Assembly (NCBI GenBank): GCA_045590195.1
Contig: JAZNQN010000044.1
Location: 19,186 to 83,185 of the forward strand
Source: Clostridia bacterium
GTDB taxonomy: Bacteria > Bacillota > Clostridia > UMGS1883 > UMGS1540
Direction of reading: 5' to 3'
Length of the DNA stretch: 64,000 nt
The number at the start of each line of letters is the position of its first letter. Position 1 is the first letter of the stretch. The notes beneath the pieces were generated by a model. It was not told where the DNA came from and did no database searches. It worked only from the letters and a program-made list of their open reading frames with translations. The position numbers were made by a program, and so were the translations under genes. Shown here piece after piece: positions 36,916 through 63,962 of this stretch.

Positions 36916-36927
36916 ATTGCGCCCTCC

Positions 36928-37602: not shown

Positions 37603-37621
37603 CAGTAGTATCTCCTTTTTC

Positions 37622-42844: not shown

Positions 42845-42858
42845 TTGCTTTCTCCTTT

Positions 42859-44032: not shown

Positions 44033-44054
44033 ACCTAAACTCCCTTCTGCAAAA

Positions 44055-45431: not shown

Positions 45432-45449
45432 AACTACTCCTCTTTTCTT

Positions 45450-46406
45450 TTATATATCCATTTGTTTTATAAGTGATTTCAAAGTATCTGCGCTATGGTG
45501 AAGTGCGCGAACCTCTTCATCATTAAGAGGCAAAAGCATTTTTCCACAAGCGCCCTTGTTGTCAACAACATTGAGAAGGCTCAAAGAAACATCATCTATT
45601 CCATATTCGCCGTGAAGCATTGTTGAAACAGTCATAGTAGTATTTATACCGCCGAGAATACATTTACAAATGTGGCAAACAGATACTGAAACAGCGTAGA
45701 ATGTTGCACCTTTTCTTTCAATAACTCTTCCGCCTGATTTGCGAACATAATCCTCAACTTCATCAAAGTCTATACTTGGCAGCTTAAAGCCTTTCTGAGA
45801 AAAATCGCCTACTACCGAAGACTGACCTTCCTGAATAGGAATGTTAGATACATTTGCAATTGACCACGGAACAAAAGAAGAATCACCATGTTCACCAAGA
45901 ACATAGGCGTGAACATTTTTCTGGTTGATTGAGTAATACTCCGAAAGCCTTGCACGAAGGCGGGCGGTATCAAGAATAGTTCCCGAACCTATAATCTGAT
46001 TTTCAGGAAGCCCTGAACATTTAAAGAATGTGTAAGTTAAAATGTCAACAGGATTGCTCACTATAAGGTAAACTGCATTTGGTGCATAGCGAACAATTTC
46101 AGGAATAATCTGTTTAGTAATATTAACATTTGTCTGAGCAAGGTCAAGCCTTGACTGACCTGGCTTTCTTGCAATACCTGAAGTTACTATTACTATATTT
46201 GAGCCTACTGCATCCTGATATGAACCTGCGTAAACTGTTGCTGATGAGCAAAACGGTGTTCCCTGGCGAATGTCAAGTGCTTCGCCAAGTGCTTTTTCCT
46301 GATTAATATCAATAAGCACAATTTCAGATGCCAGCCCCATAACAGTTAAAGTATACGCAATTGTTGAGCCAACACTACCTGTTCCTATTATTGTAATTTT
46401 GTTCAT
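45450..46406 (-). CDS. mdh: LDH-type malate dehydrogenase. The substrate-specificity residue is Arg.
   Basis: It has a Rossmann N-terminus (IIGTGSVGST) and an IARKPGQSRLDL loop with Arg at the LDH Gln102-equivalent position. The fumC context supports the call. Confidence 0.7.
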   Translation of the reverse strand: MNKITIIGTGSVGSTIAYTLTVMGLASEIVLIDINQEKALGEALDIRQGTPFCSSATVYAGSYQDAVGSNIVIVTSGIARKPGQSRLDLAQTNVNITKQIIPEIVRYAPNAVYLIVSNPVDILTYTFFKCSGLPENQIIGSGTILDTARLRARLSEYYSINQKNVHAYVLGEHGDSSFVPWSIANVSNIPIQEGQSSVVGDFSQKGFKLPSIDFDEVEDYVRKSGGRVIERKGATFYAVSVSVCHICKCILGGINTTMTVSTMLHGEYGIDDVSLSLLNVVDNKGACGKMLLPLNDEEVRALHHSADTLKSLIKQMDI

Positions 46407-46546: not shown

Positions 46547-47989
46547 TTATATTATACTGTTTGCATCACTCACGGCGTTATATATAGTTTTGTCTGCGGC
46601 CTTTTTTCCGAAGTTATCTATCATATTTTTATCGCGCGATGTGTGAGTAAGGCACCCTGCCCCACCAATACAACCACCAACACAAGCCATACCTTCTATA
46701 AAGTTTGCATCGAGCATCCCTTTGCTTTTCTTCAGAAGGTTTATTTTACACTCTTCAATTCCGTCGCACGAAATTGCATTAAGTGTAAAGTCGGTTACTC
46801 CTTTTTCTTTAAGCCCCTGTGCAACTGCATCGGCAAGGCCACCACAACGGGCAAAAATTCTTCCGAAATACGATGCGCCGTCAAGTTCGCTTTCTTCAAG
46901 AGAAGTAATATCTATATCGCGGCTGTCAAAAAGCGCCTGAAGCTCTTCAAAAGTTAAAACAGTATCAACATATTTTGAAACTTCTGCTTTCTGTGCCTCA
47001 GCTTTTTTTGCAGTACATGGACCGATAAAAATAACTTTTGCACTTTCATCGTGTTCTTTAATGTATTTTGCAATAGTTGCCATTGGCGAAAGATTATGTG
47101 AAATATTTTCAGAAAGGTTATCAAAATTTTGCTCAATATATTTTACAAACGCAGGGCAACAAGAGCTTGTTAAAAATCTTTTTTCTGCAAGCTCCTCTGC
47201 TTCGGATGCTGCAACCATATCAGCGCCAAGTGCAGCCTCAACAACATTGAAAAATCCGAGTTCTTTAATACCTGTCACAACCTGACCAAGCCTTGCATAG
47301 TTAAACTGACTTGAAATTGTAGGTGCAACAACGGCATAAATATTATACTTTGTATTATTTTCGCTACCTTTTAAAAGGTCGATTGCATCGAGAATAAATG
47401 ATTTATCTGTAATTGCGCCAAATGGGCACTGATATACACAGGCTCCACACGCAATACATTTATCATCAAGAATTTTTGCCGACATATCTACATTCGTTTC
47501 AATTGCATCCACCTTGCAAGCGCTTTGGCACGGACGACGGTAGTTTGCAATTGCGTTGAACGGACAAACTTTTGCGCAGGCACCACAGTTTTTACACTTG
47601 GTTTTATCAATGTGCGCTTTTGGGTTTTCATCAAAAGTTATGGCACCAAATTTGCAAACATCTTCACATCTGTGTGCCAGGCATCCGCGGCATGAATGAG
47701 TTACCTCGTATCCGCCCATAGGACATTCATCGCAGGCAATACTGATAACTTCAATTACATTTTTATTCCTTTTGTTACCACCCATCGCCATTTTAACTCT
47801 TTTTGCAAGAATGGCTCTTTCTTTATAAACGCAGCAACGCATAGTTGCCTCTTTCCCGGGCACAAGTATTTCCGGGATGTCGGATATATTTTCCATAAGA
47901 GTACCTGCCCAGTACAGACGGGCAACTTCTCTTAATACTTTATATTTCAGGTGTTGAACTTTAGTATCAAACTTTCTCATAATATTCAC
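46547..47989 (-). CDS. [FeFe]-hydrogenase-like protein (480 aa) with N-terminal ferredoxin-like clusters and variant H-cluster motifs
   Basis: L1 is TSSCCPAF, L2 is IGPCTAKKAE and L3 is EGMACVGGCIGGAGC. Two 4Fe-4S ferredoxin motifs lie upstream. Confidence 0.7.
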   Translation of the reverse strand: MNIMRKFDTKVQHLKYKVLREVARLYWAGTLMENISDIPEILVPGKEATMRCCVYKERAILAKRVKMAMGGNKRNKNVIEVISIACDECPMGGYEVTHSCRGCLAHRCEDVCKFGAITFDENPKAHIDKTKCKNCGACAKVCPFNAIANYRRPCQSACKVDAIETNVDMSAKILDDKCIACGACVYQCPFGAITDKSFILDAIDLLKGSENNTKYNIYAVVAPTISSQFNYARLGQVVTGIKELGFFNVVEAALGADMVAASEAEELAEKRFLTSSCCPAFVKYIEQNFDNLSENISHNLSPMATIAKYIKEHDESAKVIFIGPCTAKKAEAQKAEVSKYVDTVLTFEELQALFDSRDIDITSLEESELDGASYFGRIFARCGGLADAVAQGLKEKGVTDFTLNAISCDGIEECKINLLKKSKGMLDANFIEGMACVGGCIGGAGCLTHTSRDKNMIDNFGKKAADKTIYNAVSDANSII

Positions 47990-47990
47990 C

Positions 47991-49163
47991 TTAAAAATAA
48001 CTTACTTTAATTCTTTTACCCATTTTTTCAAGATGTTTGGATAACTCTTCTACCATATTCATTTTGATATTAAAATTTATGGGCAAATCAGGATTTTGAT
48101 GAGCAGGATTTACAGCTCTTCCAACATAAAAGTTAATATCGGTTGCTTCTTCAAACAAAAGTTGAGAAATTAACGACGCAGCATCTTTACCCATTTCCCA
48201 GTCATTATAAAGGCGGTTTTCATTAACAAAGTCCTCGGCATATTTAAGCACATGGCTCATTGTAATTACACCTTCAGTTACCAGGTCAACGCCATCAATT
48301 ATCGCTACTGGCGGAATTCCTTGTTTTTCAAACTTCAAAGTTGGTTTTACTTCCTTGCCAAGGTATTCGGCTGCAATTGAAGATGTTGTACCGCCGCAAA
48401 CAATGTGTTTACCCTCTTTTGCAAAGAAAAGTGCCATCATTTTTCTGCAATCATCTCTGTTTGATGGTGGACCAAAAACAAGGTTTATAGGCGCTCTTTT
48501 TCTTATTCTTACAACGCAGGCACTGGTATCATCGCCCGGTTCTCCGCCATAAAGTTTATTACATTCATCAGTTAAAATGGTTGCCAGGGTTTTTGCGTTA
48601 TATCCGGCACATTCAATAGTTTCCATAAACTCAGTTATCTGCTCAGTTTTCCAACCGAAATTATAAATATTTCCAATTCCTGCATGAGGACAACCATCGC
48701 TCATTGCAAGAAATAAATCGTTTTCGCAAAGCTTTATTCTCGAACGAAGCATCTTTTTATCGCCAATTGAAAATGTTTCCTGGTTATATTCAAAGTTCTT
48801 TCCGTCGCGAAGCAAAATTACAGGCGGATTATCATATTGAATAATTTCTGCAAACTCATTATTAACAATATGAATAATTGTAAATGTTGAATATGCCACT
48901 CCCCTTTGCGAACAAACGGGAAGTGTTGCTGCAATAGTTGAAACGCAGTCTTCAATTGACAGCCCTGCTGCCAGAAGAGTTGAAATTATTTTAGAAGTAA
49001 GTGTTGACAAAATGCCAGCTTTAACACCACTTCCAAGCCCATCGGCAAGAACAATTACAGATGAATTTTCGCCTGAGCTTACAACATCTATATGATCGCC
49101 GCAAAGCTCCTCACCGTGGTGGTTTAATGAGCGATATCCAATATCAGCACACAAATCATTCAT
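47991..49163 (-). CDS. SpoIIE/PP2C-type serine phosphatase with a C-terminal domain of about 170 aa of unknown function
   Basis: PP2C motifs CGDHIDV, VLADGLGSG and GDDTSACVV. Its start overlaps the hydS stop by 8 nt. Confidence 0.7.
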   Translation of the reverse strand: MNDLCADIGYRSLNHHGEELCGDHIDVVSSGENSSVIVLADGLGSGVKAGILSTLTSKIISTLLAAGLSIEDCVSTIAATLPVCSQRGVAYSTFTIIHIVNNEFAEIIQYDNPPVILLRDGKNFEYNQETFSIGDKKMLRSRIKLCENDLFLAMSDGCPHAGIGNIYNFGWKTEQITEFMETIECAGYNAKTLATILTDECNKLYGGEPGDDTSACVVRIRKRAPINLVFGPPSNRDDCRKMMALFFAKEGKHIVCGGTTSSIAAEYLGKEVKPTLKFEKQGIPPVAIIDGVDLVTEGVITMSHVLKYAEDFVNENRLYNDWEMGKDAASLISQLLFEEATDINFYVGRAVNPAHQNPDLPINFNIKMNMVEELSKHLEKMGKRIKVSYF

Positions 49164-50838
49164 CAGCTATTGTCTCCTTAAGTTTTGTAAGCGCAATTTT
49201 TGTTTCAGCAGCTGTTTCGCCAAGTAACGATGCAATTTCCTGAACAATGCGCATTTGCTTTTCAACAACTTTATCTGCTACTTCGATGGTTTCTGTCCCA
49301 ATTCTCTCTTTACGCTCTTTCTCTCTTTCCTCGGCAGTTACATCACGCAAAATGCAAATTATAATTCTATACTCTTTATCCGGAATAATTGTTTTTTCAA
49401 CATATTTGTCGTATTCTGCAAGATATTTTCTTCTGTTAGAAATCCTTCTTCCGCTTTCCATTGCATTTATAAACGGAGTAGGGTCTAAAATTCTTACAAC
49501 AGGCTCACCCATTACATCGGAAACAGATTTTACGTTCAAAATTTTTCTTGCGGAGTTGTTGATAAGCTGAACTTCAAGTTGTTCGTTTACAACAATAATT
49601 CCGTTAGGTGTGTTGTTAACTATTGTATCTGAGAAAACTTCAGCTTTATCTTTTAAAAACGGCAAACACATTGAAAGGTCGGCCTTTCCGTGGTATATTG
49701 CAATTGCTTTTTCACGGCAGGTATCATATCCACAGGAGCCACAGTTAAGCTCGTCTTCAGGACGAACTTTTCCCATTGTTTTCAGTACTTTGACTATTTC
49801 TTCATCGGCAGGTGGCTGAAGTCGTCTTTCAATAGGCTCAATGCCTTTTTGAAGTTCAGTAAAATCAGGCTGTGAAATTTCAAAGTCTTTTTCGCCTGCA
49901 TAATCAGAAACAGCTTTAAATTCACTCACAGGAGCTGAATTGAATTTTTCCATTATCGGACCGCAAATACAGCTTCCGCTGCAGGCCGACATTTCAATAA
50001 AGCATCCGTGTACTTTTCCGCTTTCAATATCACGAAGCGCTTCAATACAGTTATTAGTGCCATCAATGGCCATATATGTATATTCAGGAAGTCGCTCGTC
50101 CATTGTTTTTAATATACCTCCCGTTGTCGGGAAAAGCCTTGCACGGCTTTTTTCGGTAACATCTAGCTCTTTTTCAATCTCTATATTTTCTTCTTTGAAC
50201 CAGTTTGTAAGTTCATCGAAGGTTAAAACTGCGTCTACAATATCTCCGTAGTAATCACCCTCATCTTTTTTGGAAAGGCAGGGGCCGATAAATACTGTTT
50301 TCGCACCTGGATATTTCTTTTTAATTTCTATGGAATGAGCCTGCATAGGCGACATTGTGTTTGAAAGGTAAGGCAAAACAGAAGGAAAATACTTCTGAAC
50401 AAGCAAATTAACACTGTGGCAACAGGAAGAAATAAGAATATCAGGCTTTTCTTCACGAAGTTTGCGCTGGTATTCGTTTTTTACAATTGTTGCACCAATA
50501 GCAGTTTCTTCAGCATCGAAAAAGCCAAGTTTTAATAAAGCCTTTTTCATTGCCTCTATTCCGACACCATCATAATTTGCAATAAAAGACGGAGCAAGAG
50601 AAGCAACAACCTGTTCACCATTTGCAATCATTACTCTTACTTTTTCGCGCTGGTCTGTAATTTCTTTAGCATTTTGCGGACAAACAACAAAGCATTGACC
50701 GCATAAAATACACTCATTGCCAATAATATGTGCCTGATTACCTGAGAAACGAATGGCTTTTACGGGACAATGTCTAATACATTTATAACAGTTTTTACAG
50801 TTTGATTTTTTAAGTTTAAGCCATTCCACTATGCTCAC
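49156..50838 (-). CDS. hydS: Putative sensory [FeFe]-hydrogenase (HydS-like). It has N-terminal ferredoxin clusters, a variant H-cluster domain, an extra Cx2Cx4Cx16C motif and a C-terminal PAS domain.
   Basis: L1 is SSCCHSV, L2 is IGPCLSKKDE and L3 is EMSACSGSCICGP. CGSCGYDTC...C is present. The C-terminus has a PAS-like fold. A PP2C phosphatase is adjacent. Confidence 0.7.
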   Translation of the reverse strand: MSIVEWLKLKKSNCKNCYKCIRHCPVKAIRFSGNQAHIIGNECILCGQCFVVCPQNAKEITDQREKVRVMIANGEQVVASLAPSFIANYDGVGIEAMKKALLKLGFFDAEETAIGATIVKNEYQRKLREEKPDILISSCCHSVNLLVQKYFPSVLPYLSNTMSPMQAHSIEIKKKYPGAKTVFIGPCLSKKDEGDYYGDIVDAVLTFDELTNWFKEENIEIEKELDVTEKSRARLFPTTGGILKTMDERLPEYTYMAIDGTNNCIEALRDIESGKVHGCFIEMSACSGSCICGPIMEKFNSAPVSEFKAVSDYAGEKDFEISQPDFTELQKGIEPIERRLQPPADEEIVKVLKTMGKVRPEDELNCGSCGYDTCREKAIAIYHGKADLSMCLPFLKDKAEVFSDTIVNNTPNGIIVVNEQLEVQLINNSARKILNVKSVSDVMGEPVVRILDPTPFINAMESGRRISNRRKYLAEYDKYVEKTIIPDKEYRIIICILRDVTAEEREKERKERIGTETIEVADKVVEKQMRIVQEIASLLGETAAETKIALTKLKETIADE

Positions 50839-51095
50839 TCCCCTATATTTAATACTTTAAGTATATGTTCCTTAAAAAAGTCATCGAACTTATGTATTGT
50901 AAGTCCTACAAAAACTTCATCGTTTATCTGAACGGTTACGCCTTCGCGATTGCATTTTCCAATGCAAAAGCTTCCGGCAACAGAAACTTTGTCGCCAATA
51001 TTATAATCACTTACTGCTTTTTCAAAAGCATTTGCTATTTCATATGAACCTTTAATATGACAGGAACTGCCAATACAAACTAATACTTTAAGCAA
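50835..51095 (-). CDS. Thioredoxin-like [2Fe-2S] ferredoxin of 86 aa
   Basis: CIGSSC...C(x3)C Cys spacing, as in the NuoE C-domain or Trx-like ferredoxins. Confidence 0.55.
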   Translation of the reverse strand: MLKVLVCIGSSCHIKGSYEIANAFEKAVSDYNIGDKVSVAGSFCIGKCNREGVTVQINDEVFVGLTIHKFDDFFKEHILKVLNIGE

Positions 51096-51107
51096 AAATA
51101 AATCATT

Positions 51108-51152
51108 CCTTTTTGATTTTTTAAAAGGCCGCAGTGCGGTTGCACCGCGGCC
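51108..51152 (-). terminator. Possible weak terminator or attenuator between the two small ferredoxin genes
   Basis: GGCCGCAGTGCGGTTGCACCGCGGCC hairpin. The T run on the minus strand is only 4 nt. Confidence 0.35.
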
Positions 51153-51160
51153 ATATGTTA

Positions 51161-51409
51161 TTATTTTACAAGAGGAAGTATATTATCTTTGAAAAACGCT
51201 CTTGCCTCTTTTTCGGTAATTCGGAATGTTTTGTCATCTACTTTTACAGAAACGCCAACATTTGTACAATTTTTCATACAAAATGACGCCGCAAGTTCAA
51301 TTTTATCATGAAGATTATTATCTTCAATCATATGCTGAAATGATGACACAACATTATGTGCTCCGTTTAAATGACACGCGCTTCCAATGCATACACTAAT
51401 TTTTATCAT
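51161..51409 (-). CDS. Thioredoxin-like [2Fe-2S] ferredoxin of 82 aa
   Basis: CIGSAC...CMKNC. Paralogous to the gene at 50835-51095. Confidence 0.55.
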   Translation of the reverse strand: MIKISVCIGSACHLNGAHNVVSSFQHMIEDNNLHDKIELAASFCMKNCTNVGVSVKVDDKTFRITEKEARAFFKDNILPLVK

Positions 51410-51411
51410 TA

Positions 51412-53109
51412 TTATTCCTCCGATTTTTTCGCATAGTTCACATGTAAAAGTTTATGAACTTTACCTTTAATAATATTGTTATAAAGTGACGAAACAATTG
51501 GGTTTTCTTCTGAACGACGTATGCTTAAGAGTCTGTCAGATTTATAAAGTCCGCTCTTTCTGGCAGCAATCTCGTGCTGCATTGCAAATGGCTGACCGCC
51601 ACCATTTATACATCCGCCAGGGCAAGCCATAACTTCAATAAAGTCAATCTGTTCGCCGTCTTTTACGCGCTGAAGAACTTTTTCAGCATTTGCAAGACCG
51701 CTTACAACTACAATATGAAGTTCTCTTTCTCCATACATAAGTTTAAATTCTTTAATGCCATCAAGGCCACGCTGACCGCAATCTGCAATAGAAAGAAGTC
51801 CGCTTCTTGATTTATTTGCAGCAACACGGCGAAGTACAGCTTCTGTAACACCACCTGTTACACCAAATATTACACCTGCACCTGAAATAGTACCAAATGG
51901 CATATCGACAGCTTCAGGCTCTAAGGTATCAAACATAATACCTGCTTCTTTAACCATTGAAACAAGTTCCTGAGTTGTAATAACTGCATCAACATTAGGC
52001 TGACCGTCCATTTTGAACTCATCTCTTGCAGCTTCAAACTTTTTAGCTGTACAAGGCATTACTGCAACATGGAACATTTTTCTTGAAGCTTCTTTTGCCT
52101 GGTCTTTCAAAATTGAAGCCATCATCTGCATTGGGCTGCGGCAAGTTGATACATTAGGAAGAAATTCAGGGAATTTCTTTTCGCAGAACTGAATCCAGCC
52201 AGGGCAGCATGAAGTAATAAGTGGAAGATTTTCGCCTTTTTCAAGTTTAGTAAGAAATTCTTCACTTTCTTCCAAAACAGTTAAATCTGCTCCGAGAGAA
52301 GTATCATAAATTTCATCAAATCCCATACGATGAAGAGCGGCAACAATTTTACCCATTACATCTTCCCCGTCGCGAACACCAAGTTCTTTACCAAGTGCAA
52401 CTCTTACCGCAGGAGCAACCTGAACAGTTGTTTTAACTTCAGGGTCGCTTATTGCTTTCCAAACGGGAGCAATATTATTTTTAACAACAAGAGCACCTGT
52501 TGGACATACTGCAACACACTGACCACAGCCAACACATGGGCTTTCTGAAAGTGGTTTATTAAACGCAGTGCTGATTGTCATATTAGAGCCACGGTATGCA
52601 AAGTCGATAGCGCCAACATTCTGAACCTCGTTACACATTCTCACACAGTCGCCGCAAAGAATACATTTGCCTGTATCTCTTGTAATGCATACGGAAGACG
52701 TATCTTCATCTTTTGTTGAAACTGCAGTATTAGGGAAACGAACGCCTTCAATATTAAAGCGCATTGCCAAATCCTGCAATTTACATTTTGCGTTGTTCTC
52801 ACAGGTTGTACAGTCGCGGCAATGGTTAGCAAGAAGAAGTTCGAGAATATTTTTTCTGTATCTTCTAAGGCGCTCTGTATTTGTTTTTATGTTCATACCT
52901 GCACGAGGAGGTGTTGAACAAGCGGCATCAAGTCCGCCTCTTTCGTTTTCTACCATACACATACGGCATGCACCGTAAACCGAAAGCTCGGAATGATAGC
53001 AGAATGTAGGCATTTTTACGCCTGTTTTATTTATAAGTTCAAGAAGATTTTTCTCTCCGTTAATTTCAACGGGGATACCGTCGATTGTCAAATACTGTTT
53101 CTCAGTCAT
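51412..53109 (-). CDS. hydA: [FeFe]-hydrogenase catalytic subunit HydA, set 1 of the HydABC type
   Basis: It has an N-terminal plant-type [2Fe-2S], ferredoxin clusters, and canonical H-cluster motifs TSCCPGW, MPCTAKKFE and EVMACPGGCINGGG. Confidence 0.85.
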   Translation of the reverse strand: MTEKQYLTIDGIPVEINGEKNLLELINKTGVKMPTFCYHSELSVYGACRMCMVENERGGLDAACSTPPRAGMNIKTNTERLRRYRKNILELLLANHCRDCTTCENNAKCKLQDLAMRFNIEGVRFPNTAVSTKDEDTSSVCITRDTGKCILCGDCVRMCNEVQNVGAIDFAYRGSNMTISTAFNKPLSESPCVGCGQCVAVCPTGALVVKNNIAPVWKAISDPEVKTTVQVAPAVRVALGKELGVRDGEDVMGKIVAALHRMGFDEIYDTSLGADLTVLEESEEFLTKLEKGENLPLITSCCPGWIQFCEKKFPEFLPNVSTCRSPMQMMASILKDQAKEASRKMFHVAVMPCTAKKFEAARDEFKMDGQPNVDAVITTQELVSMVKEAGIMFDTLEPEAVDMPFGTISGAGVIFGVTGGVTEAVLRRVAANKSRSGLLSIADCGQRGLDGIKEFKLMYGERELHIVVVSGLANAEKVLQRVKDGEQIDFIEVMACPGGCINGGGQPFAMQHEIAARKSGLYKSDRLLSIRRSEENPIVSSLYNNIIKGKVHKLLHVNYAKKSEE

Positions 53110-53113
53110 TTTC

Positions 53114-54988
53114 TCAAACCTCCTTTATAGCCTTGAATGCACAAGCATCAATACAGCTACCGCAACGAATACATTTTGAAAGGTTAATTGTAAATGGTTC
53201 CTTAATTTTTCCTTCGATAGCTTCAACAGGACACTGACGGGCACATTTTGAGCAACCTTTACAAAGCTCAGGGTCAATAACAATTGTTTTAAGTTTCTGA
53301 CATTCACCCGCTGGACAACGCTTGTCGTAAATATGAGCTTCATATTCATCACGGAAGTTTTTAATTGTACTTACTACCGGAGAAGGAGCACTTTTGCCAA
53401 GTCCGCAAAGAGCTGTAGCCGAAATTGTATCAGCAAGCTCGAGAAGGAGTTCAATATCTCCATCCTGACCTTCGCCTGCGACAATTCTTTCAAGAATCTG
53501 AAGCATTCTCTTTGTACCTTCACGGCAAGGAACGCATTTACCACAGCTTTCGTTCTGTGTAAAGTTCATAAAGAATCTTGCAACCTCTACCATACAGGTA
53601 TTTGAGTCCATAACAACAAGTCCGCCGGAGCCTATCATAGCTCCAACCTTTTTAAGTGTATCAAAGTCAAGAGGAAGGTCTAAATGTTCTTTTGTAAGAC
53701 AAGCACCTGAAGGGCCGCCTATCTGTACGGCTTTAAATTCGCCGTCGCCTTTCATACCGCCACCGATATCAAAAATAATCTCGCGGAGAGTTGTTCCCAT
53801 AGGAACTTCGATAAGGCCTGTATTTGCAATGTTACCTGTAAGAGCAAAAGCTTTTGTGCCTGCACTTCCCTCTGTTCCGATACCGAGATACCAGTCTGCG
53901 CCACGGTTTATAATTTCAGCAACGTTTGCATATGTTTCAACATTATTAAGTACTGTTGGTTTATCAAAAAGACCATGTTCAACAGTTCTTGGAGGTTTAA
54001 CTCTCGGGAAACCACGTTTACCTTCGATTGAAGCAGTAAGCGCACTACCTTCGCCACAAACAAACGCACCTGCACCACGGCTGATGTGCATTTTAAACGA
54101 AAAGCCTGTTCCGAGAATATTTTCGCCAAGAAGGCCTAGTTCTTCTGCCTGAGTTATTGCATTTTTAAGTCTGTCAACAGCGAGAGGATATTCAGCACGA
54201 ACATATATGTAACCTTCACATGCGCCACAGGCAACACCTGCAATCATCATACCCTCAAGCATTCTGTGAGGGTCACCTTCCATAATACTTCTGTCCATAA
54301 ATGCACCGGGGTCACCCTCGTCACCATTACAAACAACATATTTAATAGGCTCTTTCTGGCGTTTAACCTGTTCCCATTTTCTTCCGGCAGGAAATCCGCC
54401 GCCCCCACGTCCGCGAAGGTTTGATTTACTGATTTCAGATACAATGTCATCAGCAGTCATATCAAAAAGTGCTTTTTCAAAAGCGGAATAACCACCAATG
54501 GCAATATATTCACGAATTGATTCGGCATCAATTTTACCGCAGTGTTCCAAAACGATACGGGTTTGCTGTTTATAAAAAGGAATTTCATCCTGTTTTTTGT
54601 ATGAAACGCCATCTTTTTTGCAGGCAAGGCGGTCAATGGGTTCTCCTTTAAGAACTGTTTTTTCAATAATTTCTTCACAGTCTTCAACTTTTACTTTTGT
54701 GTAAAGCCAACCCTGTGGGTCGATTCTGAGAAGTGGGCCCATTTCACAAAAACCATGGCAACCGCTCTTTTTAAGGCCTATGCTTTCATCGTGGGGATCA
54801 ACTTCAAGCTCCACTGCAACTTTAATGCCTCTTTCATCACAAAGTTCTTTAAGTCTGTCATAAATTTTAAGTGAGCCACCGGCAACGCAACCTGTTCCGG
54901 CACAAACAATGATTTTTTCGGTTTGTAGTTCATAAGACTTTTTCACTTCTTCACGAAGCTTCATAAAATCTTCTCTGTTTTTAAGCAT
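53114..54988 (-). CDS. hydB: NuoF-like NAD(P)H-binding flavoprotein subunit HydB, set 1
   Basis: It has an N-terminal Trx-like [2Fe-2S], FMN/NADH-binding Gly-rich motifs (GRGGGGFP), a NuoF-type [4Fe-4S] and a C-terminal 2x[4Fe-4S]. Confidence 0.85.
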   Translation of the reverse strand: MLKNREDFMKLREEVKKSYELQTEKIIVCAGTGCVAGGSLKIYDRLKELCDERGIKVAVELEVDPHDESIGLKKSGCHGFCEMGPLLRIDPQGWLYTKVKVEDCEEIIEKTVLKGEPIDRLACKKDGVSYKKQDEIPFYKQQTRIVLEHCGKIDAESIREYIAIGGYSAFEKALFDMTADDIVSEISKSNLRGRGGGGFPAGRKWEQVKRQKEPIKYVVCNGDEGDPGAFMDRSIMEGDPHRMLEGMMIAGVACGACEGYIYVRAEYPLAVDRLKNAITQAEELGLLGENILGTGFSFKMHISRGAGAFVCGEGSALTASIEGKRGFPRVKPPRTVEHGLFDKPTVLNNVETYANVAEIINRGADWYLGIGTEGSAGTKAFALTGNIANTGLIEVPMGTTLREIIFDIGGGMKGDGEFKAVQIGGPSGACLTKEHLDLPLDFDTLKKVGAMIGSGGLVVMDSNTCMVEVARFFMNFTQNESCGKCVPCREGTKRMLQILERIVAGEGQDGDIELLLELADTISATALCGLGKSAPSPVVSTIKNFRDEYEAHIYDKRCPAGECQKLKTIVIDPELCKGCSKCARQCPVEAIEGKIKEPFTINLSKCIRCGSCIDACAFKAIKEV

Positions 54989-55466
54989 TGTTTATCTCCT
55001 CTCTGAGTTTTTTCAAAAGCTCTGATGCTTTATCCGGTGTCATTGCAGAATATACAACATCGTTTACTGTAAGTACCGGAGCAAGACCACAAGCGCCGAG
55101 ACATGATACTGTTTCAAGTGTAAAGTTTAAGTCGTCGGTAGTTTTTTTGCTTTCGCTAAGTCCAAGTTCACTGCGAAGACGCTCCAAAATCGGAATGGAA
55201 CGGCGAACATGACAAGCTGTTCCGTCGCATATTTTTATTACATATTTTCCCTTTGGTTCAAGAGAAAAGTTTTCGTAAAATGTTGCTACGCTGAAAATCC
55301 TAACTTCAGGAATGTTAAGCTGTTTTGCAAGATGTGGAAAAATATCTTTTGGCAAGTAATGATATTCTTCCTGAATTTCCTGCAAAATTGCGATAATTGC
55401 CTGTGGATTTTTGTCGTATTTATCGACTATTTTATCTACGATTGCAAAATCAAACTGTTCACTCAT
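54981..55466 (-). CDS. hydC: NuoE-like [2Fe-2S] subunit HydC, set 1
   Basis: Trx-like fold with CDGTAC...C...CLGAC. Confidence 0.85.
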   Translation of the reverse strand: MSEQFDFAIVDKIVDKYDKNPQAIIAILQEIQEEYHYLPKDIFPHLAKQLNIPEVRIFSVATFYENFSLEPKGKYVIKICDGTACHVRRSIPILERLRSELGLSESKKTTDDLNFTLETVSCLGACGLAPVLTVNDVVYSAMTPDKASELLKKLREEINNA

Positions 55467-55488
55467 AGTTTTACTCCTTTGTTTTTAA

Positions 55489-56898
55489 TTATTTATTCTT
55501 AAGGTATTCATCGATTGCCTTGGCAGCAGTTTTACCTGCGCCCATAGCAGATATAACCGTTGCAGCACCTGTTACTGCATCGCCGCCTGCATAAACTGCA
55601 TCGCGTGATGTAAGGCCATCTTCATTTACAATAATTCCGCCTCTGTTATTAACTTCAAGGCCCTTTGTAGTATCTTTTATAAGCGGGTTAGGCGAAGTAC
55701 CAATAGACATTACAACTGCATCAACCTCTAACTCATATTCTGAACCCGGAATTTCTACAGGACGTCTTCTTCCTTTTTCATCAGGTTCGCCAAGTTCCAT
55801 TTTCATAAGGCGAATACCTGTTACAAAACCGTTTTTAGGATCTCTTGGATCCTCAGGATTGTTATAACCCAGAATTTCAACCGGGTTTCTGAGAAGCTGA
55901 AAATCGATTCCCTCTTCTTCAGCATGTTCAACTTCTTCCCTTCTTGCAGGAAGTTCTTCCATTGAACGACGGTAAATAATATAAACCTTCTCAGCTCCAA
56001 GTCTTAAAGCAGTTCTTGCAGCATCCATAGCAACATTACCGCCGCCTACAACTGCAACACGGCCACCTTTCATAATAGGTGTGCTGCCATCTTCACGATA
56101 AGCTTTCATGAGATTGCTTCTTGTTAAGAATTCGTTTGCAGAATAAACGCCTTTAAGAGATTCGCCGGGAATTCCCATGAAATTTGGAAGGCCTGCACCG
56201 CTGCCTACAAAAACAGCTTCATAGCCCATATCAAAAAGCTCGTCGATTGTAAGGGTTTTACCGATTACAACATTAGGCTCAACATTTACGCCAAGTTCTT
56301 TTAAAGTTTCAACTTCTTTAGCAACTATTGCCTTTGGAAGACGAAATTCAGGAATACCATAAACAAGTACACCGCCTGCTGTGTGAAGTGCTTCATAAAC
56401 TGTTACGTCGTAACCTTTTTTAGCAAGGTCACCTGCACAGGTAAGGCCTGAAGGGCCGCTACCAACAACGGCAACTTTGTGGCCGTTAGACAATGGTTTT
56501 TCAGCCTTTTCCTTGGCGTTTTCATTATGCCAGTCAGCAACAAAACGCTCAAGTCGGCCAATGCCTACAGGCTCAAACTTAATTCCAAGAGTACATTTAC
56601 TCTCACACTGTGTTTCCTGTGGGCAAACTCTTCCGCAAACCGCAGGAAGTGAAGATGATTTTGAAATAGACTGATATGCACCTTCAAAATCGCCATTTTT
56701 AATATGAGTAATAAAATCAGGAATATCAATATTTACAGGACAGCCTGCAACGCAAGGCTGGTTTTTACAATTTAAGCATCTTTCAGCTTCTCCTACAGCC
56801 ATTTCCTGAGTATAACCAAGAGCAACTTCATTGAAGTTATGGCCCCTCACATCAGCAGGCTGTGTTGGCATTTCATGCTTTTTAGGATTTATTGCCAT
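55489..56898 (-). CDS. nfnB: NfnB / GltD-like subunit (SudA-like; NADH-dependent reduced ferredoxin:NADP oxidoreductase large subunit)
   Basis: It has N-terminal 2x[4Fe-4S] (CLNCKNQPC...CP), two dinucleotide folds (VAVVGSGPSG and VAVVGGGNVAMD) and is about 470 aa. It is 22 nt upstream of hydC. Confidence 0.75.
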   Translation of the reverse strand: MAINPKKHEMPTQPADVRGHNFNEVALGYTQEMAVGEAERCLNCKNQPCVAGCPVNIDIPDFITHIKNGDFEGAYQSISKSSSLPAVCGRVCPQETQCESKCTLGIKFEPVGIGRLERFVADWHNENAKEKAEKPLSNGHKVAVVGSGPSGLTCAGDLAKKGYDVTVYEALHTAGGVLVYGIPEFRLPKAIVAKEVETLKELGVNVEPNVVIGKTLTIDELFDMGYEAVFVGSGAGLPNFMGIPGESLKGVYSANEFLTRSNLMKAYREDGSTPIMKGGRVAVVGGGNVAMDAARTALRLGAEKVYIIYRRSMEELPARREEVEHAEEEGIDFQLLRNPVEILGYNNPEDPRDPKNGFVTGIRLMKMELGEPDEKGRRRPVEIPGSEYELEVDAVVMSIGTSPNPLIKDTTKGLEVNNRGGIIVNEDGLTSRDAVYAGGDAVTGAATVISAMGAGKTAAKAIDEYLKNK

Positions 56899-56923
56899 TT
56901 TAAATTCCTCCTTCTAAATCAGT

Positions 56924-57772
56924 TCAGGCATTTTTGAAAAGATTGCAAGCTTCTTCATATGCGTGACGCTCAAAATCTGCATACATTCTGCCTCTTGACA
57001 TTGCCTCGTCAAAATCGATTTCGTAGGCATTAAATTCAGGCCCGTCAACACATGCAAACTTTGTAACCTTTTTGCCATCCTGGTTCAAAGTAAGTCGGCA
57101 ACCGCCGCACATACCAGTTCCGTCGATCATAATAGGATTCATTGAAGCTGTTACAGGAACACCAAAAGGTTTGGCAGTTAGAGTAACAAACTTCATCATA
57201 ATAAGCGGACCAATTGTGATGATAATGTCAAATTTTTCTCCGCCTTCAAGCATTTCTTTAAGCGGAACAGTTACGTTACCGTGACGACCATAAGAACCGT
57301 CATCAGTCATTAAAATAAGGTTGTCCGAGCATTCTCTGAACTCATCTTCCAAAATTACAAGATTTTTATCTCTGAAACCGATAATGCTTGTAACTTCAGC
57401 CCCAAGGCGATGAAATTCCTGCGCAACAGGCATAGCAATAGCACAGCCAACGCCTCCGCCTACGATACAAACTTTTTTAATACCTTCAGTATGAGTTGCT
57501 CTTCCAAGAGGACCAACAAAATCTTCAATGAACTCACCTTCGTTTTTCTGACCGAGTTTTGCAGTTGTTCCTCCAACTATTTGAAAAATTATTTTAACTG
57601 TGCCATCTTCCTTGTTGCAACCTGCAACTGTAAGCGGTATTCTTTCGCCTTCGCTGTCGACACGTAAAATAATAAACTGACCTGGTTTTGCCTTTGCTGC
57701 AACTAACGGAGCTTCAATTTCCATCTGGGTTACAGTTGGGTTTAACACTCTTTTACGCACAATTTTGTACAT
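56924..57772 (-). CDS. nfnA: NfnA / SudB-like small subunit (FNR/PyrK-like FAD protein with a [2Fe-2S])
   Basis: About 280 aa with an FNR-like fold and a C-terminal Cys cluster (CGGCRLT...C). Confidence 0.75.
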   Translation of the reverse strand: MYKIVRKRVLNPTVTQMEIEAPLVAAKAKPGQFIILRVDSEGERIPLTVAGCNKEDGTVKIIFQIVGGTTAKLGQKNEGEFIEDFVGPLGRATHTEGIKKVCIVGGGVGCAIAMPVAQEFHRLGAEVTSIIGFRDKNLVILEDEFRECSDNLILMTDDGSYGRHGNVTVPLKEMLEGGEKFDIIITIGPLIMMKFVTLTAKPFGVPVTASMNPIMIDGTGMCGGCRLTLNQDGKKVTKFACVDGPEFNAYEIDFDEAMSRGRMYADFERHAYEEACNLFKNA

Positions 57773-57974
57773 AAAAATTCACCTCTCTATATTTTAAATA
57801 ATTGTTATATTACATACATAACTTTACATAATATATAATAACACAATTACACTTTTTTGCATATTATAAAATTTGCATATCCGTTATATACTTATAGGCA
57901 TATGGTTATTTCGTTTTTACATAACAACAGCGCGATACATTTATTATGTACCGCGCTGCTTAAAATTATTTAAA

Positions 57975-59711
57975 TCAGTATTTCTTTCTTTCTACATAGT
58001 GAGTATGTAAAAGGTCGTGAGCTTTGTGTGAACCGGGTTCGCCAAAGTACTCTTTATAGAGTTTGTCAACATCAGGATTCTTATGACTCTGTCTTACAGT
58101 AGATGCTTTGTCTTCAGCATAAAGGGCTTTTGCCCTTTCAGCCTTAACATCCATATCCATACGAAGCTTAGCCGGAACAATCGGCTGACCGCCACCTGTT
58201 ACGCAACCACCGGGACAAGCCATAATTTCGATAAAGTGATAATCTGCTTTGCCCTCTTTAATACTGTCGAGAAGTGCACGTGCATTTCCAAGGCCATGAG
58301 CAATAGCAACTTTAACTTCTTTACCCCCGAGAGTAAGAGCAGCTTCTTTAATGCCCTCAACACCTCTTACTGCCTCAAAATCAAGGCTTGCAGGCTCTTT
58401 ACCGTCAAGAATTTCGGCAACTGTACGAAGTGCTGCTTCCATAACACCACCTGTTGCACCAAAGATAACACCTGCGCCTGTATCCATACCAAATGGGTCA
58501 TCGAATTTTGCATCTTCAAGAGAAGCAAAATCTATACCCTGTTCTTTAATCATTTTAGCAAGTTCTCTTGTTGTAAGAACGATATCAACATCTTGAAATT
58601 CGTTGCCAAGTTCTTCTCTGCCAGCTTCGAACTTTTTAGCTACGCAAGGCATAACGGAAACTACAACCATTTTTTCAGGGTCGATATTATTCTTTTCTGC
58701 ATAGTAAGATTTAAGAACAGCACCAAACATTTCGTGAGGAGATTTACAGCTTGAAAGGTTTGGAATAAATTCAGGATAGTAATGTTCACAGAACTTAACC
58801 CAACCAGGGCTGCAAGAAGTTATAAGTGGCAACTTACCACCATCTTTAATTCTGTTTATAAGCTCTGTTCCTTCTTCCATAATTGTAAGGTCGGCAGCTG
58901 TATTTGTATCAAAAACTTTGTCAAATCCGAGCATCTTGAGTGCATTTGCCATTTTACCTGTAACAGGTGTGCCAATTTCAAATCCGAATTCTTCGCCAAG
59001 TGCCGCTCTTACAGCAGGAGCTGTCTGAACGATAACATATTTTTCAGGATCGGCAATTGCTTCCCAAGTCTGTGCAATACTGTCTTTTTCATAAAGTGCA
59101 CCAACAGGACAAGCAGCAATACACTGACCACAGTTAACACAGGCAACATCGCCAAGTGATTGTTCAAACGCACAAGCAATTGAAGTGTTGAAACCACGGT
59201 TAACAGCGTCAATAACAGATACAGTTTGAATATTTTTACAAGCACTTACACAGCGACGGCAGAGAATACATTTGTTGTTATCACGAACAATTGATGCTGA
59301 TGAATCATCAATTTCCTGGACATTTCTCTCGCCTTCAAAAGCAATATCACGAACACCGAGTTCTTCAGCCAAAGTCTGAAGTTCACAATTTCTGTTTCTT
59401 TCGCAAGTAAGACATCTTTTGTCATGAGCGGAAAGAATAAGCTCAAGTGTGATTTTTCTTGCTTTTCTGACTTTTTCGCTGTTTGTTACAACCTCAAGGC
59501 CTTCTGAAACAGGATAAACACAAGCCGCCTGAAGTGTTCTTGCAGTTGAAACTTCAACTACGCACATACGGCATGAACCTGTTTTGCTTACATCCTTTAA
59601 ATAACAAAGAGTAGGGATGTGAATATTTGCACTGCGTGCAGCTTCAAGAACGGTATAATTTGCAGGAACGCTAAGGCTCTTGCCGTTAATTTTAATATTT
59701 ACATTTTCCAT
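57975..59711 (-). CDS. hydA: [FeFe]-hydrogenase catalytic subunit HydA, set 2. Its L1 motif is a variant.
   Basis: The domain order is the same as set 1. L1 reads TSCSPGW, confirmed at the DNA level as tct tgc agc cct ggt tgg. L2 is MPCVAKKFE and L3 is EIMACPGGCVTGGG. Confidence 0.85.
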   Translation of the reverse strand: MENVNIKINGKSLSVPANYTVLEAARSANIHIPTLCYLKDVSKTGSCRMCVVEVSTARTLQAACVYPVSEGLEVVTNSEKVRKARKITLELILSAHDKRCLTCERNRNCELQTLAEELGVRDIAFEGERNVQEIDDSSASIVRDNNKCILCRRCVSACKNIQTVSVIDAVNRGFNTSIACAFEQSLGDVACVNCGQCIAACPVGALYEKDSIAQTWEAIADPEKYVIVQTAPAVRAALGEEFGFEIGTPVTGKMANALKMLGFDKVFDTNTAADLTIMEEGTELINRIKDGGKLPLITSCSPGWVKFCEHYYPEFIPNLSSCKSPHEMFGAVLKSYYAEKNNIDPEKMVVVSVMPCVAKKFEAGREELGNEFQDVDIVLTTRELAKMIKEQGIDFASLEDAKFDDPFGMDTGAGVIFGATGGVMEAALRTVAEILDGKEPASLDFEAVRGVEGIKEAALTLGGKEVKVAIAHGLGNARALLDSIKEGKADYHFIEIMACPGGCVTGGGQPIVPAKLRMDMDVKAERAKALYAEDKASTVRQSHKNPDVDKLYKEYFGEPGSHKAHDLLHTHYVERKKY

Positions 59712-59730
59712 AATTATCTGCTCCCCTCTC

Positions 59731-61611
59731 TTAGTGTTTTTCTATTGCGCCAAATTTACAGCTATCCATACACACGCCACATTTGATACATTTGTCTGTA
59801 TCAATTGTAAATGGCGATTTGATTTCGCCTGAAATTGCGCCAACAGGACATTTTCTTGCACAGAGTGAACACCCTTTACATTTATCTGCAACAATCTCGT
59901 ATTTAAGAAGTTTTTTACATACGCCTGCAGGACATTTTTTATCACGAACGTGAGCAATGTATTCATCCCTGAAATAACGAAGTGTGCTGAGTACAGGGTT
60001 AGGAGCTGTCTGGCCAAGGCCACAAAGTGAAGAAGTTTTAATAGCTTCACAAAGCTCTTCAAGCTTATCAATATCTTCCATTGTTCCCTTACCTTCTGTA
60101 ATTTTTGTAAGAATTTCAAGAAGGCGTTTTGTACCGATACGGCATGGCGAACATTTACCACAGCTCTCATCAACTGTAAATTCAAGGAAGAATTTAGCAA
60201 TATCAACCATACAGTTATCTTCATCCATTACAATAAGACCACCGCTGCCCATCATAGAGCCAATGCTCATAAGCGAATCGTAATCAATAGCTGTATCAAT
60301 CAAAGATGCAGGAATACATCCTCCCGAAGGGCCACCTGTCTGAGCGGCTTTAAATTTCTTACCGTTTGGAATTCCGCCGCCAATTTCTTCGATGATTTCA
60401 CGAAGAGTTGTTCCCATAGGAACTTCAACAAGACCTGTGTTATTGATTTTACCACCAAGAGCAAATACTTTTGTACCTGCGCTCTTTTCGGTACCAATAC
60501 CTTTAAACCAAGCGGCACCATTATTTATAATCATAGGAATATTTGCATAAGTTTCAACATTATTCAGAAGAGTTGGTTTCTGCCACAAACCTTTAACAGC
60601 CGGGAACGGAGGACGTGGACGTGGTTCGCCACGGTGACCTTCAATAGAAGTCATAAGAGCTGTTTCCTCGCCGCAAACAAATGCACCGGCACCAAGACGA
60701 AGCTCAAGGTTAAATTCGAAATCAGTTCCAAAAATATTTTTACCAAGAATTCCATATTCCCTTGCCTGTTCAATAGCAATATTAAGGCGGTCAACCGCGA
60801 TAGGATATTCGGCACGAATATAGATATAACCCTGCTTAGCGCCTACTGCATAAGCTGCAATTGACATAGCCTCTATAATAGTGTGAGGATCACCCTCAAG
60901 AACACTACGGTCCATAAACGCACCAGGGTCGCCTTCATCGGCATTACATGCAACATATTTTTCTTCGCCGGGAGCATTTGCAGTAAACAACCATTTCATA
61001 CCTGTTGAGAAGCCGGCACCGCCACGGCCACGAAGACTTGAGTTTTTAACTTCATCAATTACTTCAGCAGGTGTCATACTTGTAAGAACTTTTTCAAGGG
61101 CTTTATAACCATCGAAAGCTATGTATTCATCAATATTTTCAGGATTAACAACACCACAGTTACGAAGAGCAAGACGCTGTTGTTTTCTGTAGAAATTAAC
61201 ATCGTTAAGACCTTTGATATTTTCACCATCAATTGTTTCCTGATAAACAAGGCGTTTTACAACGTTTCCACCCTTAAGGTGTTCACTGACAATTTCCTTA
61301 ACATCTTCAATTTTTACGCAGCTGTAAAAACATCCTTCAGGATATACTATCATAATCGGGCCAAGTGCACAAAGGCCAAAGCAACCGGTCTGAACAACCT
61401 GAATTTCGTCTGCAATACCAAAATCTGCAAGCTGTTTTTTAAGTTCTGTAATAATTTTGGGCGAACCCGATGAAGTACAACCTGTACCGCCACATACGAG
61501 CACATGGTGGCGAATTTTATCGGGAACCACATTTTTATCTTTACGAAGTGAAATTCTTTTAAAAGTTTCACTACGTATAGCATTTATTTCATTTAAGCTT
61601 TTCATAATCAA
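59731..61611 (-). CDS. hydB: NuoF-like flavoprotein subunit HydB, set 2
   Basis: Paralogue of the gene at 53114-54988 with the same motif set. Identity is about 55-60% by eye. Confidence 0.85.
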   Translation of the reverse strand: MIMKSLNEINAIRSETFKRISLRKDKNVVPDKIRHHVLVCGGTGCTSSGSPKIITELKKQLADFGIADEIQVVQTGCFGLCALGPIMIVYPEGCFYSCVKIEDVKEIVSEHLKGGNVVKRLVYQETIDGENIKGLNDVNFYRKQQRLALRNCGVVNPENIDEYIAFDGYKALEKVLTSMTPAEVIDEVKNSSLRGRGGAGFSTGMKWLFTANAPGEEKYVACNADEGDPGAFMDRSVLEGDPHTIIEAMSIAAYAVGAKQGYIYIRAEYPIAVDRLNIAIEQAREYGILGKNIFGTDFEFNLELRLGAGAFVCGEETALMTSIEGHRGEPRPRPPFPAVKGLWQKPTLLNNVETYANIPMIINNGAAWFKGIGTEKSAGTKVFALGGKINNTGLVEVPMGTTLREIIEEIGGGIPNGKKFKAAQTGGPSGGCIPASLIDTAIDYDSLMSIGSMMGSGGLIVMDEDNCMVDIAKFFLEFTVDESCGKCSPCRIGTKRLLEILTKITEGKGTMEDIDKLEELCEAIKTSSLCGLGQTAPNPVLSTLRYFRDEYIAHVRDKKCPAGVCKKLLKYEIVADKCKGCSLCARKCPVGAISGEIKSPFTIDTDKCIKCGVCMDSCKFGAIEKH

Positions 61612-61632
61612 ACCTCCAAGTTCAAATCTGGT

Positions 61633-62121
61633 TTATTCCATATACTTTTTCAAGATGCCTTCAACTTCGTCAACGGTAAGTTTTCCGTAAACGTCTTCGC
61701 CAACTGTCATAACAGGAGCAAGACCGCAGGCACCGATACATCTTGTAGCATCGATAGAGAAAAGACCGTCGGGAGTACATTCTCCAACTTCTATTCCCAA
61801 AATTTCCTTAACCTTCTCCAGAATAAGATTTGAACCTTTTACATAACATGCAGTACCAAGACAAACACCTATCTGATATTTGCCCTTTGGATTAAGTGAA
61901 AACTGAGCATAAAAAGTTACAACTCCATAAATTTCAGCCAAAGGAATATTAAGTCCTTCTGCAATCATTGTCTGCACTTCGATTGGCAGATATCCATAAA
62001 TTTTCTGCGCTTCGTGCAAAACAGGAATAACTGCGCCGGGCTGATCTTTGTGCATTTCAATAACTTCGTTAAGCTTTGCAGCCTGTTCACTTGTTCCTGC
62101 AAATGGTATTGTTTGTGCCAT
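61633..62121 (-). CDS. hydC: NuoE-like [2Fe-2S] subunit HydC, set 2
   Basis: CLGTAC...C...CIGAC, Trx-like. Confidence 0.85.
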   Translation of the reverse strand: MAQTIPFAGTSEQAAKLNEVIEMHKDQPGAVIPVLHEAQKIYGYLPIEVQTMIAEGLNIPLAEIYGVVTFYAQFSLNPKGKYQIGVCLGTACYVKGSNLILEKVKEILGIEVGECTPDGLFSIDATRCIGACGLAPVMTVGEDVYGKLTVDEVEGILKKYME

Positions 62122-62399
62122 TAAAAACTCCTCCTATGTTTTATATTAATGCATAATAACACATCATTGTTAATATTATATCAATTATATCACTTTTACA
62201 CAAGTACCTAAATTATTTTTGGTTACATTGTACAAAACTTACCGCGTATTTTCCGTTTTTACCTATGCTTTTTTTGCATAATGACTATATAAAAAATGTT
62301 GGATAACAAAATTACACAAATATAGCTAAAAAAACTTTGACTTTTTTCCTATAATATGTTATCATTATTTAATAATGCATTTTACGAGGAGTGAATCAA

Positions 62400-63962
62400 G
62401 TGGCAGAAAACATTAAAAGTACCACAGAAGAACAGGTACAGGATTTAAACGAAATTTTACAGGTAAGAAGAGATAAGCTTGCCGAACTTCAGCAAAGCGG
62501 CAACGATCCTTTTCAGATAACAAAATTTGACCGTACACATTCTTCAAAAGATATTTGCGAAGGATACACAACCGAAGAACGCACAGTAACTGTTCGCGGA
62601 GAGGAAACACAGGTAACTGCTAAAATCTCCCCTCTCGACGGGAAAATTGTTACTGTTGCCGGCAGAATTATGTCAAAACGTGGTATGGGTAAAGTTGGCT
62701 TTGCTCACATTGCTGATATTGACGGTCAGCTTCAGCTTTTTGTTAAAAAAGATATTCTTGGCGAAGATGACTATAATACATTTAAAAAATATGATATTGG
62801 CGACATTGTTGGCGCTGAAGGCGAAGTTTTCACAACACAGACAGGCGAAATTTCAGTTCGTGTAAATAAACTTACACTTCTTTCAAAATCACTTCAGCCT
62901 CTCCCTGAGAAGTTCCATGGTATGACAAATACCGACCTTCGTTACAGACAGCGCTATGTCGACCTTATTATGAACGCCGATGTTAAAGATACATTTATCA
63001 AGCGTTCAAAGATTATCAGCGCAATCCGCACATATCTTGCAAAAGAAAACTTTCTCGAAGTTGAAACACCAATGCTTGTTTCAAACGCAGGCGGCGCTGC
63101 TGCCCGTCCTTTCGAAACACATTTTAATGCTCTTGATGAAGATTTCAAACTTCGTATTTCTCTTGAACTTTACTTAAAACGTCTTATCGTTGGTGGTCTT
63201 GAAAGAGTATATGAAATTGGAAGAGTTTTCAGAAACGAAGGCCTTGACACCCGTCATAATCCTGAGTTTACTCTTATGGAGCTTTATCAGGCATATACAG
63301 ATTACCACGGTATGATGGATTTAACTGAAAACCTCTACCGCTATGTTGCAAACGAAGTTTTAGGCACAACTAAAATTGTTTATAACGGTATTGAAATGGA
63401 TTTAGGCAAGCCTTTTGAAAGAATTACAATGCTTGATGCAGTTAAAAAGTATTCCGGTGTTGACTTTAATGAAATTAAAACTACCGAAGAAGCTCACGCA
63501 GTTGCAAAAGAACACAATATCGAATTTGAGAAACATCATAAAAAAGGCGATATCTTAAACCTTTTCTTTGAAGAATATGTTGAACATCACTTAATTCAGC
63601 CTACATTTGTTATGGATCATCCGGTTGAAATTTCTCCTCTTACCAAGAAGAAACCGGAAAATCCTGATTATGTTGAACGTTTTGAATTCTTTATGAACGG
63701 CTGGGAAATGGCAAATGCTTATTCAGAACTTAACGACCCAATTGACCAGAGAGAACGTTTTAAGGCTCAGGAAGAACTTCTTGCTATGGGCGATGAAGAA
63801 GCTAACACAACTGATGAAGACTTTATGCGTGCACTTGAAATTGGTATGCCTCCAACAGGCGGTATCGGATTTGGTATTGACAGAATGTGTATGCTCCTTA
63901 CCGACTCTGCTGCAATCCGCGATGTACTTCTCTTCCCGACAATGAAACCGCTTGATAAGTAA
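62400..63962 (+). CDS. lysS: Lysyl-tRNA synthetase, class II
   Basis: Class II motifs ([14 protein letters not shown]). The start was moved to the GTG at 62400 (MAENIKS), which has an AGGAG RBS 8 nt upstream. Confidence 0.9.

Follow-up and report, generated by a model that had tools for sequence, protein, structure and literature searches.

The closest described relatives of the system studied here are the HydABC hydrogenases of Acetobacterium woodii (PDB 7Q4V, 7Q4W and 8A5E) and Thermoanaerobacter kivui (8A6T and 8BEW), reported by Katsyv et al. (2023, PMC10021017). According to that paper, both complexes are active and bidirectional and carry a typical H-cluster, the coupled H2-dependent reduction of NAD+ and ferredoxin (or its reverse) was shown for both, and the activities of the A. 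woodii complex are similar to those of the all-Cys T. kivui enzyme. The authors state that in A. woodii HydA1 one of the cysteines that ligate the [4Fe-4S]H subcluster is replaced by Ser301, with the Fourier-transform infrared (FTIR) signature of the H-cluster apparently unaffected; a natural serine at the H-cluster cubane is therefore already known, as of 2023. An engineered counterpart is the C170S variant of CrHydA1 from Chlamydomonas reinhardtii (Kertess et al. 2017, PMC5855289). It still acquires both its [4Fe-4S] cluster and its [2Fe] subsite and is capable of turnover, but it matures slowly, is less active and has its bias shifted in favour of H2 evolution; the same authors called natural serine coordination of [4Fe-4S] clusters unknown in 2017. 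The motif TSCSPGW had also been mentioned in passing in trimeric confurcating hydrogenases of Melainabacteria ACD20 (Di Rienzi et al. 2013, PMC3787301). Our full-text literature searches returned no discussion of the serine variant beyond these three papers, and the motif is not mentioned in the review PMC8924675. Here we analysed the hydA gene of one of two hydCBA sets (set 2) carried by a 64,000-nucleotide stretch of Clostridia bacterium DNA (assembly GCA_045590195.1, contig JAZNQN010000044.1, positions 19,186 to 83,185; hereafter the window), in which the same position is also occupied by a serine. Our analysis indicates that set-2 HydA very probably functions as the catalytic subunit of an electron-bifurcating/confurcating HydABC of the A. 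woodii type, in whose lineage the fourth [4Fe-4S]H ligand position is naturally Ser301.

The set-2 hydA gene (57975..59711, on the minus strand, like all features given below unless stated otherwise) was read from its open reading frame and translation; its 578-amino-acid product is the catalytic subunit of an [FeFe] hydrogenase and belongs to the A. woodii HydA1 type (NCBIfam group A6). The translation contains LPLITSCSPGWVKF. Its L1 motif, TSCSPGW, covers residues 298-304 (T298-W304; 58800..58820) and lies inside the interval 58799..58840 where the first-pass annotation, made from the letters alone, had located it; the minus strand spells L1 as act tct tgc agc cct ggt tgg, so that the central tct tgc agc cct of that annotation was read correctly. 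The first cysteine of the motif is kept as Cys300 (TGC, 58812..58814), the counterpart of the proton-relay residue Cys299 of the Clostridium pasteurianum enzyme CpI. The next codon, AGC (58809..58811), specifies Ser301, which aligns with the second L1 cysteine, the ligand of the [4Fe-4S]H subcluster: Cys300 in CpI and Cys299 in T. kivui, the latter identified by residue count in the alignment as the second Cys of TSCCPSW. The corresponding A. woodii residue is Ser301, for which the ligand assignment comes from PMC10021017. Both these alignments and that paper agree with the roles initially given to the two cysteines, proton relay for the first and [4Fe-4S] ligand for the second.

The rest of the catalytic domain is canonical. 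L2 (MPCVAKKFE, 58626..58652) provides the cluster ligand Cys356, and L3 (EIMACPGGCVTGGGQP, 58182..58229) provides Cys499 and Cys503; both match their classical patterns, MPCxxKxxE and ExMxCxxGCxxGGGQP, while L1 is as in the solved A. woodii member. In the two Melainabacteria ACD20 proteins, the motif 3 cysteine was reported to be replaced by isoleucine (PMC3787301). Alignment to CpI also recovers the motif MEEGTELINR (58851..58880), in which, by our count, three conserved residues correspond to Glu279, Glu282 and Arg286 of the CpI proton-transfer pathway. A further stretch, LSSCKSP (58737..58757), includes Cys322 and the counterpart of the CpI proton-pathway serine Ser319. The proton-relay cysteine and the Glu, Ser and Arg residues of the pathway are all present in set-2 HydA. 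CpI (4XDC and 3C8Y), the prototypical group A enzyme, shares with it a single-polypeptide domain layout of about 575 amino acids, L2, L3 and the proton pathway (E=7e-153), but is monomeric and ferredoxin-dependent, has TSCCPGW with Cys300 as ligand, and lacks HydB and HydC.

Set-2 HydA scores 932.7 bits against NCBIfam NF040763 (NADH-dependent [FeFe] hydrogenase, group A6; cut-off 765), over profile positions 1-571 of 571, and 560 bits against TIGR02512 (group A; cut-off 406). It fails the classical group A motif test, in which L1 should read TSCCPxW, by its serine at the second cysteine; since TIGR02512 is passed, this failure does not place it outside group A. In a search of all PDB sequences the best match was A. 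woodii HydA1 (7q4v_A, of the 7Q4V/7Q4W/8A5E structures; E=1e-239, 800 bits), which bears the motif ITSCSPGWIKF, followed by T. kivui HydA1 (8A6T/8BEW, TSCCPSW; 634 bits) and then CpI (TSCCPGW). A pairwise alignment with A. woodii HydA1 gives 62% identity over the full length, places Ser301 on Ser301 and shows an identical L1 (ITSCSPGW) with canonical L2 and L3; the two proteins are of the same length class, have the same domain order and align end to end. T. kivui HydA1 shares the HydABC architecture and the bifurcating class with the set-2 protein and differs from it by its canonical TSCCPSW and its cubane ligand Cys299. Upstream of the H-domain, set-2 HydA has an N-terminal F-domain ([2Fe-2S], His-ligated [4Fe-4S] and two ferredoxin-like [4Fe-4S] clusters), with cysteines at 36, 47, 50, 64, 100, 103, 109, 148-158 and 191-201, and it ends in a small-subunit-like C-terminal tail; the F-domain and H-domain Pfams PF13510, PF10588, PF12838, PF02906 and PF02256 were found on a database protein (P0001) 100% identical to it.

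The partner subunits are encoded next to it. Contiguous with hydA are hydB (59731..61611), for a 626-amino-acid NuoF-like FMN/NAD subunit with iron-sulfur domains (NuoF family match; best PDB match A. woodii HydB, 7q4v_B, E=5.9e-302), and hydC (61633..62121), for a 162-amino-acid NuoE-like [2Fe-2S] subunit (NuoE/HoxE family matches; best PDB match A. woodii HydC, 7q4v_C, E=3.2e-59). Because HydA, HydB and HydC each have their closest solved counterpart in the A. woodii complex, we assign set 2 to the A. woodii type; it is an ordinary member of that known family. The arrangement is kept in 80 related loci (described below), where hydB lies directly upstream of hydA in essentially every locus that reaches far enough upstream. 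The organism differs from A. woodii: the window's nearest relatives are metagenome-assembled genomes of uncultured Clostridia and Oscillospiraceae. Within the related loci (L001-L080), hydC and hydB are mostly separated by about 0.9-1 kb, presumably occupied by additional small genes; hydC abuts hydB directly in some 10 of them (L017, L023 and L058 among others), as it does in the window. A scan of 55300..62450 for promoter and terminator consensus sequences gave nothing above shuffled expectation.

We assessed the conservation of the serine in two samples. Firstly, in a search of about 5.8 billion proteins, the best 120 homologues (72-100% identity to set-2 HydA) all carried TSCSPGW (120/120). 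Secondly, a genome scan limited to one genome per species, using six peptide patterns of which none was the L1 motif, retrieved 80 loci from 80 genomes (60-73% identity), and all 80 had TSCSP[GA]W, 79 as TSCSPGW and one as TSCSPAW; the sources included uncultured Clostridia, Oscillospiraceae, Lachnospiraceae, Ruminococcus, Dorea, Clostridium leptum DSM 753, Faecalicatena contorta and Mobilisporobacter senegalensis, among others. The serine is thus fixed throughout the sampled clade, in 200/200 close and moderately distant homologues, and is neither chance nor noise. At the codon level, the 80 loci use TCA (35), TCT (16), AGC (11), TCC (9), TCG (7) and AGT (2), that is 67 TCN and 13 AGY codons, while the neighbouring Cys300 varies only synonymously (TGC 50, TGT 30). 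Since the serine codons vary across both codon families, it is the serine itself that is maintained. The first-pass annotation had offered, as an alternative to a genuine substitution, a single T-to-A sequencing or assembly error turning TGC (Cys) into AGC (Ser). AGC is indeed one substitution away from TGC, the sole point in favour of an error, but the same serine recurs in all 120 independent database homologues and in every locus from other genomes, most of these loci use TCN codons that no such change can reach, and the motif is also that of the solved A. woodii protein; we regard the probability of an error as practically nil.

We then considered how far the serine type extends beyond this clade. 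With HMMER, run without filters, we searched 1.84 billion cluster representatives at 50% identity and took the best 150 matches: 22 of them (about 15%) have [TS]SCSP[GA]W as L1, about 100 have [TS][ST]CCPxW, and the remainder are degenerate or truncated. TSCCPxW is therefore a majority consensus and not an invariant motif, as had been supposed from the window sequence; it is too strict as a test, because the characterised A. woodii HydA1 and these 22 representatives fail it as well. The natural Cys-to-Ser variants that the first-pass annotation had proposed looking for by alignment to group A hydrogenases do exist, A. woodii HydA1 among them. A crude neighbour-joining tree, from which the motif columns had been left out, groups the window protein firmly with A. 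woodii HydA1 and its close homologues, all of the serine type; the other serine-type representatives are scattered among cysteine-type ones on long, poorly resolved branches, a topology that does not fix the number of origins. The top-scoring cluster representative (P0121), a protein of 4122 amino acids, matches the HydA query in 7 separate stretches, which may reflect either a giant fusion of several hydrogenases or an artefact of gene calling; the L1 regular expression found no match in it.

Some of the cluster representatives have a degraded L1, such as SSSSPAW, ATHSPAV or VSNSEGI, and the genome encodes a second, canonical HydABC. Both facts are compatible with set-2 HydA being a degenerate, non-catalytic hydrogenase-like subunit that no longer has a proper H-cluster and is confined to a role in electron transfer or sensing. 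However, set-2 HydA retains intact L2 and L3 motifs, Cys300 as proton relay and the residues of the proton pathway, TSCSPGW is strongly conserved among the homologues, and the A. woodii homologue, which shares the motif, is catalytically active and has a typical H-cluster (PMC10021017). Degeneration is accordingly a very improbable explanation of the serine.

The ligand set around Ser301 was examined by comparing serine-type and cysteine-type representatives. The conserved H-domain cysteines of the serine type are 300, 356, 499 and 503, that is, the set of the cysteine type minus 301, and Cys300 is a cysteine in 100% of the representatives of both types. The comparison revealed no extra conserved cysteine specific to the serine type in the H-domain. 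Cys322 was considered as a substitute fourth ligand and rejected: it is frequent in both types (0.81 in the serine type, 0.54 in the cysteine type) and hence not specific to the former. Second-sphere covariation was analysed with 16 serine-type and 67 cysteine-type sequences; no position covaries perfectly with Ser301. The only clean association is a glycine at +2, present in 16/16 serine-type sequences, where the cysteine type has A, G or S, and the serine type tends to have Ile rather than Phe at -4.

Another reading of these data is a register shift, in which Cys300 would ligate the cubane, giving an all-Cys cluster, and Ser301 or another group would take over the proton-relay role. The unchanged FTIR signature of the A. 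woodii enzyme (PMC10021017) is what an all-thiolate cluster would produce, natural serine ligation of [4Fe-4S] clusters was described as unknown in 2017 (PMC5855289), and the density obtained by cryo-electron microscopy (cryo-EM) may, in our judgement, not tell oxygen from sulfur. Set against this, the published atomic models name Ser301 as the ligand replacement (PMC10021017), Cys300 is as fully conserved in the serine type as in the cysteine type, which fits an unchanged proton-relay role in both, and the flanking TS..PGW is unchanged, hence no insertion or deletion is present to drive a shift; moreover, the engineered C170S enzyme shows that a serine here is compatible with H-cluster assembly (PMC5855289). 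We consider a register shift unlikely, though less so than degeneration.

The reading that we prefer is that set-2 HydA is a working catalytic subunit with a natural serine ligand. Besides the proton-relay Cys300 and the residues of the proton pathway, the protein keeps the other three ligand cysteines (Cys356, Cys499 and Cys503), and its gene lies within an intact hydCBA operon. By analogy with the A. woodii complex, the set-2 enzyme would assemble a normal H-cluster with a Cys3Ser-ligated cubane and would couple H2 to, or from, NAD(H) and ferredoxin. Three points weigh against this reading. Iron coordination by the serine O-gamma comes from cryo-EM models of a homologue, the maps of which, in our judgement, may not fix the exact register or separate O from S ligation. 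The lower activity and slow maturation of C170S indicate that a serine ligand is not automatically neutral, and natural enzymes may carry compensations. Finally, none of the HydE, HydF and HydG maturases was found among ten further window open reading frames scanned, a result that has no bearing on the rest of the genome.

The first-pass annotation expected the serine to alter the H-cluster potential and activity. The 62%-identical A. woodii enzyme speaks against this expectation, since it is described as having no apparent FTIR change and activities like those of the T. kivui complex (PMC10021017); a subtler tuning of the [4Fe-4S]H potential or of the catalytic bias may nevertheless exist. 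CrHydA1 C170S resembles set-2 HydA in having a serine at the homologous [4Fe-4S]H ligand position, but it is an artificial mutant of a minimal, H-domain-only enzyme, and no such defect is described for the natural A. woodii serine enzyme (PMC10021017). For annotation, it follows that TSCCPxW should not be counted as invariant and that proteins with TSCSPGW should not be flagged as defective or erroneous. The clade-wide fixation of the serine is also broader than the single-enzyme remark found in the searchable literature.

The window contains two complete hydCBA sets, 51412..55466 (set 1) and 57975..62121 (set 2), about 2.5 kb apart. The set-1 hydA (51412..53109), used here as comparator, encodes a protein of 565 amino acids with the canonical TSCCPGW (residues 299-305); its L2 (MPCTAKKFE) and L3 (EVMACPGGCINGGGQP) are canonical as well, so that the contrast first noticed between the two paralogues, restricted to L1, was borne out when the motifs were read from the translations. 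Set-1 HydA scores below the NF040763 cut-off (681 bits vs 765), and its best match among solved structures is T. kivui HydA1 (8a6t_A, E=7e-165). The two HydA proteins share only 44% identity and are therefore old paralogues rather than the products of a recent duplication. By these sequence affinities, the window combines an A. woodii-type HydABC with serine and a T. kivui-type HydABC with cysteine. One may speculate that the Cys-to-Ser exchange is a selected tuning of the [4Fe-4S]H potential or of the catalytic bias (the engineered C170S hints at a shift in favour of H2 evolution) across a large HydABC clade of gut, rumen and acetogenic Clostridia, and that genomes with both sets, such as this one, use the serine and cysteine types for different directions or redox partners; we hold this idea tentatively and think it rather doubtful.

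Between the two sets (55489..57772) lie genes for a 282-amino-acid sulfide/dihydroorotate-dehydrogenase-like FAD/NAD protein and a 469-amino-acid GltD-like NADPH-dependent glutamate-synthase-type protein, a pair which we take to resemble the NfnAB transhydrogenase. An NfnAB-like pair within 8 kb of hydA was found in 0/80 related loci, two of which had a weak NfnA-like match (about 30% identity); as the adjacency is not conserved, we rejected these genes as part of the serine-type system.

Downstream of set-1 hydA, the region 47991..51409 encodes two small cysteine-containing proteins (82 and 86 amino acids) that look like thioredoxin-like [2Fe-2S] ferredoxins, a 560-amino-acid hydrogenase-like protein with SSCCHSV as L1 and a long C-terminal extension, which we read as a HydS-type sensory protein, and a 390-amino-acid protein without NCBIfam match that looks like a PP2C-type phosphatase. 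Together these genes resemble a putative H2-sensing regulatory module. They are followed by a third type of hydrogenase, a monomeric group B [FeFe] hydrogenase of 480 amino acids (46547..47989; TIGR04105, 555 bits, cut-off 450) with L1 TSSCCPAF. Further along, the cluster 35308..46406 includes genes for a TfrA-like fumarate reductase flavoprotein (35308..36915) and for an HdrA2-like protein whose score of 789 bits is below the cut-off (40850..42844). Also encoded there are a cysteine-rich, HdrB-like protein (43238..44089) and proteins similar to class II fumarase (44055..45431) and to Ldh/Mdh-family dehydrogenases (45450..46406). As a whole, the cluster has the look of a module for soluble, Hdr-linked fumarate reduction. 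The left edge of the window carries, on the plus strand (462..1889), an XerD/XerA-like tyrosine recombinase, scoring below cut-offs, that may mark the boundary of a mobile element.

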